Below, piece after piece: positions 7,194 through 17,932 of a DNA stretch of 17,932 nt. The DNA comes from a virus: UHGV virus genome UHGV-1599718; one strand, given 5' to 3'. Numbering within the stretch: the stretch's first letter is position 1; every line of letters starts with the position of its first letter. The position numbers and the translations under genes were made by a program. The notes beneath the pieces are model-generated. The model did not search any database, was not told the origin of the DNA, and saw nothing but the letters and a program-made list of their open reading frames with translations.

Positions 7194-7209
7194 ATTCAAC
7201 CATAAAAAA

Positions 7210-7225
7210 GGCCCCCGAAGGGGCC
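7210..7225. terminator. bidirectional intrinsic terminator
   Basis: ggcccc-cgaa-ggggcc flanked by an A-run on the left; on the minus strand the stem is followed by ttttttatgg. Confidence 0.5.
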
Positions 7226-7231
7226 TAATCG

Positions 7232-7354
7232 CTACTTGCTGCTAATGTTTATCGTCACATTCAGAGCGTTATCAGTAATCTTCCAACCCTCCCCATGTGG
7301 CGTAAACAAAGCTCCAGTAACAACGATAAAAATACACATACAGTATTTTTTCAT
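7232..7354 (-). CDS. possible small hydrophobic peptide (40 aa); speculative
   Basis: Internal ATG of ORF 7232..7414 gives MKKYCMCIFIVVTGALFTPHGEGWKITDNALNVTINISSK; ends at the minus-strand face of the 7210-7225 terminator. Weak RBS. Confidence 0.2.
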   Translation of the reverse strand: MKKYCMCIFIVVTGALFTPHGEGWKITDNALNVTINISSK

Positions 7355-7752
7355 TGTATGGCCCTTACAGGCCGTTTCACGGCATCCCCACCGACGAAAA
7401 CAACGCGAGAGCAAGCACGGCTGCTTGTGCTTGCATGTACGGCAACGGAGAATCCTCCCCTAAAGTCGGTGCCCGGGTGCGAATCGGCGGGAAGGTCCAC
7501 AGGTATTTTACGATTATTTTAAGATTAGTAATAGGAAAGAAATTAAACGAAAAAACTCGTTTATTTTCACAAAATCAGTAACCTACCCACAATCTGTGAG
7601 TTTGCAGGCACAACAAGAACCACAATTTTTTGAAGCATAATAGTGGACTATTATTACCTTTTGGGTAAAATTAACTTGCTGCTTGTGCTTGCGTGGTTGT
7701 TTATACAACAACGTAATGCTGAAAGGACCGCGAATCCGATCAGCACGAAAGA

Positions 7753-7779
7753 ACCGTCCTCAATAGGGCGGTTTTTTTG
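7753..7779 (+). terminator. intrinsic terminator candidate in a non-coding region
   Basis: accgtcct-caat-agggcggt (one G-U pair) followed by TTTTTTT. Confidence 0.5.
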
Positions 7780-7925
7780 TTTCTGCCTACCAATAAACCC
7801 ACGCTATGTGGTTGTCTCTGTTAAAATCCCGCCGTATTGACATGAATGCGCCATTGGTGGACACTTTCCGAGCCGTAGCAAAATCTACGGTCGGGATTGG
7901 AACCCCGATAATCATCATGGCGCAT

Positions 7926-7946
7926 ACCGCGTTAGCGGTTTTTTTA
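7926..7946 (+). terminator. intrinsic terminator candidate in a non-coding region
   Basis: accgc-gtta-gcggt followed by TTTTTTT. Confidence 0.5.
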
Positions 7947-8110
7947 TGCGTAAAGCACTGCTACACCCAAATTATGGTGGGGCGTGCGGGGGAGTCGTAA
8001 GACTCGCCGGATTCCATGGTGACCGGTAGTTCCAACCCTGTACGTCTCACCACCCAATGATTGGAACCAGACGGTGGTGAGTATCCTTAACCTTTAAGGG
8101 AACTATCACC

Positions 8111-12388: not shown

Positions 12389-14358
<1,970 letters not shown>

Positions 14359-15129: not shown

Positions 15130-15370
15130 TTAAATAAAGAAAGTCTTAATAAAAGAAAGTGATTTTGCATTTATTTGTTTAGTGCATCTATTATAAAAAA
15201 CCATTTGCATATATGTATCAAAACTGTGGATAACTTTATTAGCCGATGCCTGTAAAGGCGATATTTTCGCTGTGTTCAGGTTTAGAGAAAATTAATTTAG
15301 ATTGTTTTTTGAACAGGTATTTTATTGCGACGTAGATAATCCTCCGGTAAAACCGGATTCATCATTCAGG
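15130..15370. other. putative replication origin region of the IncFII-type replicon (AT-rich, DnaA box, short direct repeats)
   Basis: Lies immediately downstream of the RepA stop. TGTGGATAA (complement TTATCCACA, the DnaA box consensus) at 15225-15233; AAAGAAAGT at 15136-15144 and 15152-15160; ATTTGCAT repeated. Confidence 0.4.
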
Positions 15371-15374
15371 TGGG

Positions 15375-16223
15375 TTAATGTTGGAGTGATTTCCAGGTCT
15401 TTCTTAGCCTGTTATAACGCTGCTCAACGAGGGATCGTAAATATGCAAGGTCAGCACCAGGATACATGCCATCAGCAAATTCCTGACTAACCTCTCTGGT
15501 GATTTGATGACGAAGTTCGGCCTCTCCCTTTTCACGAACAAGACGCGCAGCTCTCTCCGCTGCTTTCTGTTTTGCCTTTATCTCTCTGGCCGTCTTCCTC
15601 TGACGCCATACATTCTCCATCTGCTCCTGAATAACAATACGCTTATAATCAGCCTCCGTTATCGCTTTTTTAAGCCGTTCGCTATTCTTCGCATTGAAGT
15701 AATTAAGTTTCTGGCTAACCGCACGTCTCCATGCTTGTTCAGTAATACCAACGGTTTCCAGCAGTTGATCACGAATCTCTATTTTCGCTGGCCAATACTG
15801 TTTATTCACCCGATCCCAGCGACGTTCATAATCAATAAAACCTAACGCTTTCAGTTGCGACAACGCCCTTGTACAGCGCGTTATAGACTTGTTCCCAGCT
15901 TCGGATACGGTAGACAGGCCGCAAAAATCAGCCAACGCCTCAGCACTGGCCAGAACCCGCTTAGAAATGATGTTTACATGGTGCAAAATCGCAGCAATCA
16001 CAGCATTAATCGCCCGACGACGATGCTCGTTTATCCGGCGTTTCCGCTCTGACGGTTGATTAACGTAGAACGCAACCTCACACGTAAGATCACGACCATT
16101 AATGCGCTGTAAAGCATCAGATAATACCAGCGGCAGCTTGTGCGTATGGTGCTTTGGAGGCTGGAACTCCGGCGACAAATTACAAACGTAAGCTGAACGT
16201 AGAGACGGCATTGGTCTATCCAT
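15375..16223 (-). CDS. repA: IncFII-type plasmid replication initiator RepA (RepFIIA family, about 283 aa)
   Basis: Segment RRRAINAVIAAIL ... ADFCGLSTVSEAGNKSITRCTRALSQLKALGFIDYERRWD aligns by eye with R100/R1 RepA1 (RRRAIDALLQGL ... AIECGLATESAAGKLSITRATRALTFLSELGLITYQTEYD). Start placed at MDRPMPSL (16223); an in-frame upstream ATG at 16361 would add 46 aa and may instead be a leader ORF. Confidence 0.8.
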   Translation of the reverse strand: MDRPMPSLRSAYVCNLSPEFQPPKHHTHKLPLVLSDALQRINGRDLTCEVAFYVNQPSERKRRINEHRRRAINAVIAAILHHVNIISKRVLASAEALADFCGLSTVSEAGNKSITRCTRALSQLKALGFIDYERRWDRVNKQYWPAKIEIRDQLLETVGITEQAWRRAVSQKLNYFNAKNSERLKKAITEADYKRIVIQEQMENVWRQRKTAREIKAKQKAAERAARLVREKGEAELRHQITREVSQEFADGMYPGADLAYLRSLVEQRYNRLRKTWKSLQH

Positions 16224-16267
16224 ATGTTCGCTCTTGCGTCCACGGAAAACCAACGTATAATGGGAGT

Positions 16268-16353
16268 TGTCGAGGCGCCCATGGATTGTTGTTGGTTTTT
16301 GTTTCTTTCCGTGGATGTCGCAAGAAGCCCGCAGATTTATCTGCGGGCTTTTT
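16268..16353 (+). ncRNA. candidate CopA-like antisense RNA of the repA leader
   Basis: Plus-strand TTGCGT (16234-16239), 16 bp spacer, TATAAT (16256-16261), then about 85 nt ending in the hairpin agcccgcag-atttat-ctgcgggct plus TTTT (16326-16353). Antisense to the region upstream of the repA start. Confidence 0.45.
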
Positions 16354-16397
16354 GTTTCCATATCTGGTCACTTTTCAACCAGACACCCACAATCATA

Positions 16398-16412
16398 ACC
16401 ACGTTACGTGGT
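16398..16412. promoter_or_regulatory. operator O5 (ACCACGTTACGTGGT) in the repA promoter region
   Basis: Same ACCAC-N5-GTGGT dyad as O1-O4, about 175 bp upstream of the repA start, adjacent to a TATGAT -10 candidate on the minus strand. Confidence 0.5.
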
Positions 16413-16542
16413 TTTAAGAGAACTCTACCACAACACTTTCGGTCATGCACGAAGTCTCTCACTGATCGAACGATAATCCACCAGTAAAAGGATCTAAATT
16501 GGATCTCGTTTTGCGAGCATCATACTACTGGCCTAACTCCAG

Positions 16543-17097
16543 TCAATGATTCCCAGCCGGAAACCTGCGGTAAAGCGTGGATAAGGTAACATCGAAGATA
16601 ATCGCTATCCGCTTACGTGAAACACCATTCGCAATAAGCCTTCCGATCTGTTCCCATTGCTCTGGTGCCAATTTTGAGCGGCGTCCTCCTATCCTGCCGT
16701 TAGCCCTTGCCACCGCCAATCCTGCACGCGTTCTTTCAATCATATTTTCCCGCTCCATCTCTGCGACTGCACTCAGCATCGTGTAGGCAAAGCGGCCAAT
16801 TGAAGTGCTAATTTTTATCCCTTCCGTAATCGAAATAAACTCAATGTTGTTTGATAAAAAATAGTTTAGTAAATCAACAAGATGAATCAGAGAACGCCCC
16901 ATTCGGTCCAGCTTCCAGACAATAACCGTATCGCCCGGCCGTAACACCTTCAGTAGCTTATCAAGTCCTGGTCGTTTTGATTTAGCACCGGATATTTTAT
17001 CTTCAAAAATCCGGTCACATCCTGAACTCCTGAGCGCCTCCAATTGTAATTCCAAATTCTGGTCAAAAGTTGACACCCTCGCATAACCATATTGCAT
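16543..17097 (-). CDS. serine recombinase, DNA invertase of the Hin/Gin/Cin/Pin family (184 aa)
   Basis: N-terminus MQYGYARVSTFDQNLELQ with catalytic-Ser context; VWKLDRMGRS; C-terminal HTH (RKRIAIIFDVTLSTLYRR). Near-collinear by eye with e14 Pin. Confidence 0.9.
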   Translation of the reverse strand: MQYGYARVSTFDQNLELQLEALRSSGCDRIFEDKISGAKSKRPGLDKLLKVLRPGDTVIVWKLDRMGRSLIHLVDLLNYFLSNNIEFISITEGIKISTSIGRFAYTMLSAVAEMERENMIERTRAGLAVARANGRIGGRRSKLAPEQWEQIGRLIANGVSRKRIAIIFDVTLSTLYRRFPAGNH

Positions 17098-17107
17098 ACT
17101 TTCTAAA

Positions 17108-17932
17108 CCGCGATTGTTGCTAAAAGCGGGAAAAAATATCGTTCAGACGACACAGAGGCAATTCGCAAAAACCTCGGTTTACAGGAAACGGTAAATAAGG
17201 CTGGTAACGCCGTTCAAAAGACAGGTGATACCTTGTCCGGCGGACTTACTTTTGAAAACGACTCAATCCTTGCCTGGATTCGGAATACTGACTGGGCAAA
17301 GATTGGATTTAAAAATGATGCCGACAGCGATACTGATTCATACATGTGGTTTGAAACAGGCGACAACGGAAATGAATATTTCAAATGGAGAAGCCGCCAG
17401 AGCACCACAACAAAAGACCTGATGAATCTTAAATGGGATGCTTTGTCTGTCCTTGTTAAAGCCCTTTTCAGCAGTGAAGTAAAAATATCGACAGTCAATG
17501 CACTGAGGATATTTAATTCATCTTTTGGTGCCATTTTTCGCCGTTCTGAAGAATGCCTGCATATCATCCCGACACGAGAGAATGAGGGAGAAAATGGTGA
17601 TATAGGGCCACTACGCCCCTTTACGCTTAATCTCAGAACTGGTCGGATAAGCATGGGGCATGGTCTTGATGTTACAGGGGATATATTTGCAAACCGTTTT
17701 GCAATTAACAGTAGTACCGGCATGTGGATTCATATGCGTGACCAGAATGTTATTTTGGGACGCAATGCGGTATCCACCGATGGTGCACAGGCATTACTTC
17801 GTCAGGACCATGCTGATCGCAAATTTATGATTGGTGGACTGGGAAATAAGCAATTTGGCATCTACATGATTAATAACTCAAGGACAGCCAATGGCACCGA
17901 TGGTCAGGCGTACATGGATAATAACGGGAACT
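17108..17932 (+). CDS. tail-fibre C-terminal variable segment (no start codon of its own; 3-prime end beyond window); probably the silent alternative copy inside an invertible segment
   Basis: Open frame from the stop at 17105 to the window end, absent from the ORF track because it has no in-window stop. Translation ... NRFAINSSTGMWIHMRDQNVILGRNAVSTDGAQALLRQDHADRKFMIGGLGNKQFGIYMINNSRTANGTDGQAYMDNNGN resembles phage tail-fibre C-termini. Confidence 0.6.
17162..17187. other. gix/hix-like recombination crossover site
   Basis: TTCGCAAAAACC-TC-GGTTTACAGGAA: the right half equals the Mu gix half-site and the left half matches the TTATCAAAAACC consensus at 9-10 of 12 positions. It lies 65 bp from the invertase start, inside the tail-fibre reading frame. 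Confidence 0.65.

Follow-up and report, generated by a model that had tools for sequence, protein, structure and literature searches.

A candidate antisense RNA and a predicted three-segment RNA switch in the repA leader of an Escherichia coli phage-plasmid

How is the replication gene of a phage-plasmid held in check when neither a copB gene nor a conserved leader peptide accompanies it? This question is raised by the repA locus of UHGV virus genome UHGV-1599718, of which we analysed a stretch of 17,932 nucleotides (nt), referred to below as the window. The element is a phage-plasmid of 47-50 kb (~48 kb) that carries a repA of the IncFII/L-M family, and an earlier note on its sequence had placed a CopA-like antisense RNA and a leader open reading frame (ORF) upstream of this gene. 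We put at roughly 60% the probability that an antisense RNA of ~90 nt controls repA by a three-part RNA switch that works without a leader peptide, a reading that draws on sequence comparison and modelled folds. The features, their conservation and covariation and the energetics of the folds were computed, and from these we infer expression, the direction of regulation, the kinetic order of folding and the part that a variable loop plays in incompatibility. The gene at issue is the following.

15375-16211, minus strand: repA, 278 amino acids (aa) from the conserved AUG at 16211, or 282 aa if the start is 16223; the 328-aa ORF from 16361 is probably an over-extension.

The minus-strand ORF at 15375-16361 encodes an IncFII-superfamily replication initiator (Pfam PF02387, E = 1.3e-43). 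It matched the NCBIfam model RepA_IncFII_LM (NF040977) with 231.4 bits against a cut-off of 70, over model positions 1-266, with the alignment beginning at residue 60 of the long ORF. The equivalog model for IncFII proper, TIGR03474, gave 78.6 bits, far under its cut-off of 446.9. The start common to all lineages aligns with AUG 16211 (MPSLRSAYVCN); in E. coli, AUG 16223 also shares the repA frame, as it does in just one other lineage (L028; related loci are cited by L numbers where they need to be told apart).

On the strand opposite repA, the earlier note had described a TTGCGT-N16-TATAAT promoter followed by a strong intrinsic terminator. Both are where they were said to be, and they delimit the candidate antisense gene.

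16234-16261, plus strand: antisense promoter, with the -35 box TTGCGT at 16234-16239, a 16-nt spacer and the -10 box TATAAT at 16256-16261.

About 16268-16357, plus strand: predicted antisense RNA, ~88-92 nt, with its start placed at 16266-16269.

16274-16319, plus strand: stem-loop I, the recognition hairpin, whose stem joins 16274-16285 with 16308-16319.

16286-16307, plus strand: hypervariable loop of stem-loop I, the presumed specificity (incompatibility) determinant.

16320-16357, plus strand: intrinsic terminator, with a hairpin at 16320-16355, GC core GCCCGCAGA/TCTGCGGGC and tail TTTTTGTTT.

The window contains two instances of TTG-N19-TATAAT, where shuffles would lead one to expect 0.17. 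The terminator hairpin begins ~60 nt past the -10 box and consists of a 16-base-pair (bp) stem and then a U-tract. As had been claimed, the predicted RNA of ~90 nt is complementary to the repA leader. When its sequence (16268-16357) was folded, as the earlier note had suggested for comparison with CopA, it formed two stem-loops, the recognition stem-loop and the terminator hairpin, at -41.4 kcal/mol (z = -6.1), and none of 200 shuffles folded as well.

To place these features in a comparative frame, we gathered 33 related loci from PLSDB, IMG/VR and metagenomes and added distant relatives via the RepA protein. BLAST supplied the PLSDB loci. For those from IMG/VR and metagenomes we searched with an exact 36-nt anchor within 16316-16351, which forces invariance there; the anchor does not cover 16198-16282. 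Both promoter hexamers were invariant in 15 alleles from six lineages, and TATAAT also stands at the homologous place in distant relatives and in the IncL plasmid pOXA-48. The two-hairpin fold was the same in all 11 alleles tested, with 99% of cells paired. Stem-loop I showed one fully compensatory pair (G-C to A-U, in L002) together with one-sided changes that keep pairing (G-C to G-U, U-G to U-A), and the terminator stem changed in a compensatory manner from GCAGAU/AUCUGC to GCGGAU/AUCCGC in L027, L032 and L034.

Could there be no antisense gene at all, the hexamers having arisen by chance and the hairpin serving the repA leader or the invertase transcript as a structural element or as a terminator in both directions? 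The poor -35 box would suit such an explanation, as would the generic scans, which listed neither promoter nor terminator, and the lack of an Rfam family. The promoter scan passed over this promoter probably because its -35 box matches consensus at only 3 of 6 positions, and the terminator scan probably missed the hairpin because an A-U extension of the stem absorbs the T-run. Rfam returned no plasmid antisense family, either for the window at the gathering threshold or for 16100-16560 at E <= 10; its only matches there were partial and terminator-like, the sub-models aligning locally to the terminator (CsrC 3' hairpin, E = 6e-5). Against chance, however, stand a U-tract that follows the hairpin on the plus strand only, a TATAAT and a TTGCGT that are invariant in all lineages and sited where the antisense promoters of classical relatives lie, and the combination of invariant stems with a hypervariable loop that an antisense specificity hairpin is expected to show. 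We therefore give this explanation hardly any credence. A protein-coding role for the plus-strand 87-aa ORF at 16224-16487 was also considered and was rejected, since its frame would not survive loop indels of 1, 4 and 7 nt. From its sequence features, the plus strand at 16268-16357 very probably specifies a constitutive, untranslated antisense RNA that acts as a negative copy-number regulator of an IncFII/L-M-family replicon.

The loop of stem-loop I was by far the most variable part of this region. Over 16313-16367 (the terminator and one stem arm) the E. coli group has a single haplotype, and the same holds over 16198-16282, which takes in the other arm, both boxes of the antisense promoter and the start region of repA. 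Between these invariant flanks, the loop of ~20-30 nt takes nine haplotypes in 13 distinct E. coli-group sequences. Its mean pairwise difference per site is 0.204, compared with 0.014 in the repA coding sequence and 0.022 in the 5' leader, values outside the loop ranging from 0.000 to 0.022. After ten more complete plasmids had been included, the count of loop alleles stood at 13 in the 33 loci and at 11 in the 30 E. coli-type loci.

The loop of this clade is A/C-rich (CCAACAACAAUCC and variants); the allele of E. coli ATCC 25922 is (CAA)3 and that of L015 is AAUUAACC. The allele of the window is unique and carries an insertion. The sequence TTTTTGTTTC occurs twice, at 16296-16305 within this window-specific insertion and at 16349-16358 in the terminator tail; the insertion copies the tail, which points to local duplication or template switching as the source of the unique allele. 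Since the (CAA)n, A-run and TTTTTGTTTC-duplication alleles all look like products of slippage or duplication, hypermutability and selection are not separable in these data. Invariant stems around a hypervariable loop are nevertheless what is expected of the antisense specificity hairpin in IncFII, I-complex and REx-C systems, and the invariance of stems, promoter and terminator around such a loop supports a working regulator here. The diversity of the loop, if the loop is the specificity determinant, probably creates many incompatibility types within one phage-plasmid lineage.

How might such an RNA act on repA? Three segments of the repA mRNA appear to be central.

16291-16324, minus strand: segment A, CUUGCG-ACA-UCCACGGAAA(insertion)AAAACCAAC, the antisense target and 5' arm of a long-range helix.

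16233-16254, minus strand: segment B, GUUGGUUUUCCGUGGA-CGCAAG, which pairs with A or with C.

16209-16224, minus strand: segment C, UAUGGAUAGACCAAUG, the repA translation-initiation region, including AUG 16223 and the conserved AUG 16211.

Segment A, read from 16324 to 16291, can also be written 5'-CUUGCG-ACA-UCCACGGAAAACCAAC. Segment B overlaps the antisense -35 box and spacer and lies outside the antisense-complementary region. It is identical to the 3' half of antisense stem-loop I but for a 3-nt gap; in effect, the repA mRNA would carry in cis a copy of that part of its inhibitor which binds A. A and B can already be recognised in the DNA as inverted repeats (I2, I3), as can the terminator (I1).

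When the leader was folded in full from the repA promoter, the minimum-energy structure joined A and B in a 22-bp helix in eight of eight alleles. Across nine distinct sequences, 95.8% of the A:B cells were paired, and three pairs had changed on both sides, one of them appearing as A-U, G-C and C-G. The covariation score of the helix was 0.130 against 0.059 +/- 0.013 for shuffles (none of 500 reached it) and at most 0.039 for slid controls. Between L028 and E. coli, three A:B pairs are fully compensated (CCACCGGAAUCCAAC with GUUGGAUUCCGGUGG). In a clade with 60% RepA identity (L026, L029, L031), A and B are unrelated in sequence and the arrangement is the same (UUGUCAGCCAGG-UA-GCCACAC with GUGUGGC-CCUGGCUGACAA), as is the order of terminator hairpin, A, antisense -10 box and B. 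The variable portion of the loop is mostly the portion that A:B does not use, a pattern that fits constraint by A:B with freedom elsewhere to change specificity.

We imitated a bound antisense RNA by forbidding pairing in the antisense-complementary region. With the target blocked in this manner, B paired with C in five of five alleles, in E. coli burying both AUG 16223 and AUG 16211, and the unpaired probability from -15 to +3 of the conserved AUG fell from 0.53-0.59 to 0.19-0.35 in these five alleles. The B:C hairpins ranged from -16 to -20.5 kcal/mol, with z between -2.9 and -5.7, and in none of the six lineages did any of 200 shuffles do as well; these per-sequence folds and shuffles replaced a column-wise covariation analysis (MAFFT), which failed because lineages use different registers. 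Segment C is among the stretches that diverged most between lineages, yet it remains complementary to its own B (CCAGCG, UUCAACG or CCAAC, each with CAUGGA). In each of the 15 alleles A:B, at -24 to -42 kcal/mol, was the more stable of the two pairings. On the sense strand, stem-loop I is weak (-1.7 to -5.5 kcal/mol), because G-U pairs of the antisense RNA become C-A mismatches in the mRNA, and this weakness leaves A accessible. Since the B:C hairpin is followed by CCGUCUCUACGUU with no U-run, and since it contains the start codon, its effect would be on translation rather than on transcription.

In the 60% clade, B:C-like behaviour was seen around the start of the first cistron. An ORF of 158-162 aa overlaps the repA start there (ATGA; 2016-2504 in L026, 2028-2504 in L029, 1236-1712 in L030); it resembles IncFII_repA (Pfam PF02387) in L029 and L030, and L031 has a shortened version. 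This ORF appears to be a cistron under the same A:B:C design.

On the model that these folds suggest, A would be exposed in a weak hairpin while ~60 nt more of the leader are transcribed. Without antisense RNA, the emerging B would lock onto A in the 22-bp helix, C would stay open and RepA would be made. If antisense RNA captured A first, B would be left free and could fold onto C, burying in a hairpin the repA AUG together with the bases that immediately precede it. A rise in copy number, and with it in antisense RNA, would thus lower RepA synthesis and hence replication, and the loop of the recognition hairpin would set which antisense RNA recognises which plasmid. A leader peptide would be unneeded because A:B is more stable than B:C and, on this model, forms first.

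The same observations bear on two other accounts of the locus. In one, the antisense RNA is real and acts mainly through duplex formation and decay by RNase III/RNase E, or through transcriptional interference, with A:B and B:C as mere by-products of an inverted duplication. Complementarity over ~90 nt would allow a full duplex, B does resemble a duplicated piece of the antisense gene, and the convergent promoters lie ~250 nt apart. Against this account, A:B complementarity survives three double changes and complete replacement of the sequence in the 60% clade, C has diverged strongly and is still complementary to B in six lineages, and B and C are invariant in the E. coli group while neighbouring sequence varies. 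We consider this account unlikely.

In the other, the A/B inverted repeat acts as DNA and not as an RNA helix: a dimeric protein, for instance RepA or a phage repressor, would bind it as an operator and so control the antisense promoter or repA. B covers the antisense -35 box and spacer, the arms of 15-22 bp lie ~50 bp apart, and operator-like symmetry had been pointed out nearby in the earlier note. Some A:B cells are nevertheless U-G wobbles, which keep pairing in RNA but not symmetry in DNA, and insertions of 5-9 nt in one arm are tolerated (the window, L006, L040), which is unexpected of an operator. The half-sites are also wholly different in the 60% clade though RepA is conserved, and the complementarity of B to C has no explanation at the DNA level. 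An operator is thus very improbable, and the three-segment RNA switch remains the reading that we prefer.

The earlier note had likened the locus to the CopA/CopT/tap logic of IncFII replicons, with an in-frame upstream ATG opening a 46-codon leader frame within the reach of the antisense RNA.

16359-16361, minus strand: upstream in-frame ATG, not conserved as a start.

The ATG at 16361 is present, and the 46 codons from it to ATG 16223 are free of stops, but it lies just outside the antisense RNA. The frame does not hold up in relatives: the ATG is missing in the Salmonella relatives, is out of frame in L006, L017, L018 and L019, and is followed by an in-frame stop in L003. Loop indels of 1, 4, 7, 8 and 13 nt underlie this loss of frame. 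The repA lengths given by PGAP/RefSeq (L001, L003, L040-L049) are 277-278, 282 or 326 aa and vary only with the loop allele, since the called start shifts according to whether the allele keeps or breaks the upstream frame. The RepA annotations of 326-328 aa in RefSeq are therefore probably over-extended and mis-annotated.

Other candidate leader frames were examined and rejected. The +2 frame that ends at TAG 16218-16216, with GTG 16371 as a possible start, lacks a start codon beyond the loop, and in L006 and L015 it is broken. Translation of the +1 ORF, whose AUG at 16282 is conserved, would begin inside a stem and without a Shine-Dalgarno (SD) sequence, and would stop at different positions in different relatives. 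The in-frame UUG 16252 was set aside by comparison, its frame changing between lineages, and the AUG of the conserved CAUGGA falls in frame 0, +1 or +2 depending on the lineage. Among the relatives compared, no frame with both a conserved start and a conserved stop was found that could encode a tap-like peptide. The AAGGA SD of the classical leader peptides has become CUCCC in the present clade, which has CUCCCAUUAUA where classical relatives have AAGGAUUAUA, and no conserved ORF.

These comparisons weigh on the classical alternative, in which the antisense RNA blocks a leader ORF (the 46-codon frame or another short one) to which repA is translationally coupled. An antisense RNA of ~90 nt with two hairpins is indeed like CopA, leader peptides are the rule in relatives, and in the window the 16361 frame is open into repA and the +2 frame stops just before AUG 16211. 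The comparisons have nonetheless largely refuted such coupling: ATG 16361 is lost, out of frame or stopped in relatives, the +2 frame is startless and interrupted, the UUG and AUG candidates in B and C switch frame between lineages, the SD has gone, annotated repA length follows the loop allele and nothing else, and there is no Rfam match to CopA (RF00042). We regard this alternative as very unlikely. CopA/CopT/tap logic in the strict sense thus finds no backing here, given the missed TIGR03474 cut-off and the lack of a tap-like ORF in addition to the Rfam result. The accompanying statement that no CopB gene is present proved correct, the co-oriented gene upstream being a serine invertase. What remains of the earlier note is an antisense copy-number regulator without CopB; membership of the CopA family and a tap-like or 46-codon leader do not remain.

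Several points weigh against the three-segment switch itself. The antisense -35 box is weak (3 of 6 consensus positions). Since its stems scarcely vary, the antisense RNA itself shows little covariation: there is a single compensatory pair, and 83 of 500 shuffles score as high. Few lineages supply the compensatory changes in A:B, which might have arisen in single steps through quasi-palindrome template switching, with no selection at the RNA level. The register of B:C differs by lineage, leaving it with no column-by-column score. A 22-bp A:B helix would also be a substrate for RNase III, and cleavage could change the outcome. Finally, repA has no clear SD, its true start being either 16211 or 16223, and the conserved AUG 16282 opens a +1 ORF that may be translated.

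A broader claim is held more tentatively, at somewhat less than even odds: that this clade has swapped leader peptide and pseudoknot for an RNA-only, co-transcriptional three-way switch in which B is a cis-encoded mimic of the antisense RNA, and that the part of the loop free of A:B is under diversifying selection. If this were true, diversifying selection would yield at least a dozen mutually compatible replicon specificities in a phage lineage that is ~98% identical, and loop diversity would matter for superinfection and for the co-residence of related phage-plasmids.

Towards its 5' end, the leader holds further conserved elements, beginning with the probable start of the repA transcript.

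16519-16546, minus strand: probable repA promoter, TTGACT-N16-TATGAT, matching 10 of 12 consensus positions.

The hexamers of this promoter are kept across all lineages and its spacer is variable. Directly 3' of the predicted transcription start, at 16490-16504, lie two GATC (Dam) sites 11 nt apart; the paired sites and their near-constant spacing are kept in the relatives of the leader alignments, and the bases between them differ. A repressor-type operator had been noted near the antisense gene, by which the palindrome AACCACG-TAA-CGTGGTT at 16398-16414 was probably meant. The palindrome is there, with arms conserved and centre variable in all lineages, but it could be a hairpin of the leader RNA as well as a protein operator. 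At 16363-16395, just 5' of the complement of the antisense terminator, the minus sense can form a hairpin, GGUGUCUGGUUG-AAAAG-UGACCAGAUAU. The sequence of its stem is wholly different in L002, L027, L028, L032 and L034, where it still looks self-complementary by eye, and its loop is a second small hot-spot with five haplotypes.

On the other side of repA, an AT-rich stretch contains a further feature of the replicon.

15225-15233, minus strand: perfect DnaA box TTATCCACA, in the AT-rich stretch downstream of repA; 0.09 expected by chance.

This box marks a probable origin 3' of repA, and origin placement downstream of repA is the IncFII-type layout.

The element as a whole is mainly one of Escherichia. 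In PLSDB, 59 plasmids match the window region at 95-99% identity, nearly all from Escherichia. One of them is the ATCC 25922 plasmid (NZ_CP009073.1), in which the locus lies at about 12,900-13,300. From Salmonella there are three matching plasmids, at ~75%. The same region is present in three Yersinia phages isolated from plaques. The replicon was found in 71 of 5426 complete E. coli genomes (1.3%), plasmid-borne each time and once per genome, and none of the complete E. coli genomes carrying it had two of these plasmids. A 94-kb record holding two replicon copies is another assembly of ATCC 25922, about twice the length of the 48.5-kb plasmid; it is probably a dimer rather than two co-resident alleles, and its first half was read. 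The gene map of the full element comprises terminase, portal, capsid, contractile tail, tail fibres with an invertase, ParA/ParB and a toxin-antitoxin pair. As an identity for the element, the pSLy3/SSU5 phage-plasmid group was dropped; its members are much larger, and pSLy3 sits in the SSU5 supergroup. Literature searches found no description of this replicon.

Directly upstream of repA, and co-oriented with it, the gene at 16543-17097 encodes a serine DNA invertase (Resolvase/HTH_7), not a CopB-like repressor. As the stop codon of this gene lies over the -35 box of the repA promoter, read-through from the invertase into repA is possible. At 16543-17932, this invertase of the Cin/Hin/Pin type adjoins tail-fibre sequence, as in the host-range switches of P1 and Mu. 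Between the toxin-antitoxin region and the replicon, two successive plus-strand ORFs of 390 and 266 aa (12389-14358) have translations that resemble an IS21-family istA/istB pair, and none is listed at the matching place in the ATCC 25922 plasmid. Further away, Rfam matches cluster in 7204-8057: ryfA (7204-7500, minus strand), isrK (7872-7945, plus strand) and C4 antisense RNA (7970-8057, plus strand), the last of which we take to point to a P1/P7-like immunity RNA region in the phage-plasmid.

How does the locus compare with known systems? Antisense control of IncFII-superfamily replicons is textbook knowledge, and the bare finding of such an RNA is ordinary. With IncFII plasmids (R1/R100) the locus shares a Rep protein of Pfam PF02387, an antisense RNA of ~90 nt with two hairpins on the repA leader and an origin with a DnaA box downstream. 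In IncFII the loop sequence determines incompatibility, and the same is expected here. The present locus differs in lacking a CopA match in Rfam, a tap ORF and copB, and in a RepA that scores far under the TIGR03474 cut-off.

The logic of the proposed switch has a formal analogue in the antisense-driven attenuation of pT181, pIP501 and pAMbeta1, in which a preemptor helix competes with a terminator. There, as would be the case here, the antisense RNA binds the first segment and blocks the preemptor helix (the counterpart of A:B), and the middle segment joins the third in an inhibitory hairpin, a choice presumably made during transcription. In contrast with pT181-type control, the predicted inhibitory hairpin of the present leader has no U-run after it and encloses the start codon, and the Rep families and hosts are unrelated.

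The REx-C modules (Pseudomonas PFP/RepJ, ColE2-type) combine an antisense RNA, a terminator hairpin flanked by A-runs and compensatory stem changes (PMC5304414), and the present locus is likewise a compact control module with these three properties. In REx-C, few loop changes overcome incompatibility and some members are without a leader peptide (PMC5304414). The Rep proteins and sequences are unrelated to those studied here, however, and an A:B:C switch is not described there.

Three more distant relatives have what may be called the classical layout. It is shared by L025 (63% RepA identity), by L005, a 43,621-bp K. pneumoniae KPC plasmid (p09A18011_A_KPC; 37%), and by IncL pOXA-48, whose RepA is ~20% identical over the sole stretch aligned by BLASTP. 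In this layout there is one large stem-loop, with a UUGGCG-type loop in L005 and L025 and UUUGGCCGG in pOXA-48. An AAGGA SD overlaps the antisense -10 box (AAGGAUUAUA) in all three, a leader peptide of 15-17 codons contains the loop-complementary sequence, and its UGA overlaps or just follows a GUG start of repA.

We compared the present locus with the IncI-complex (ColIb-P9 Inc RNA/repY/repZ and IncB pMU720) and with IncL/M (pMU604, pCTX-M3 and pOXA-48, RNA I/repB/repA). In the published mechanism of pMU604, with which the classical layout agrees, RNA I blocks a pseudoknot that is required for repA translation (PMC8125031). The likenesses are considerable: an initiator of the RepA_IncFII_LM family, a short antisense RNA whose promoter lies within the leader and has its -10 box at the homologous place, and stem-loop I of the rep mRNA as the antisense target. 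In both, moreover, the stem-loop I region pairs, here by prediction, over a long range with a distal sequence upstream of the rep start, a pairing that the antisense RNA prevents (as published for pMU604; PMC8125031) or would prevent here, and an SLIII-like hairpin that holds the distal sequence sequesters the rep start, a role that would fall to B:C in the present leader.

The differences are equally specific. The present clade is without a leader peptide of the repY/repB type or its SD, and its loop lacks the UUGGCG-type motif. Where those systems form a loop pseudoknot of 7-8 bp, the 22-bp helix predicted here would replace stem-loop I and exclude it; where they use one dual-purpose hairpin, a separate terminator hairpin is found. 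The repA start is AUG rather than GUG, and RepA is only ~20% identical to that of IncL.

The locus may thus exemplify, in nature, the apparent loss of the leader peptide from I-complex/L-M control, with a stronger long-range helix doing its job. Since a relative with 63% RepA identity keeps the classical layout, the evolutionary transition can be studied directly. The 11 loop alleles in 30 near-identical E. coli-type loci offer a handle on how phage-plasmids avoid incompatibility with their kin, and experiments should be easy to set up because the element is present in E. coli ATCC 25922 and in 1.3% of complete E. coli genomes. Judged from sequence and predicted structure, the closest known system is the pseudoknot control of the IncI-complex and IncL/M plasmids, of which the present locus is best described as a variant without a leader peptide and with a hypervariable specificity loop.

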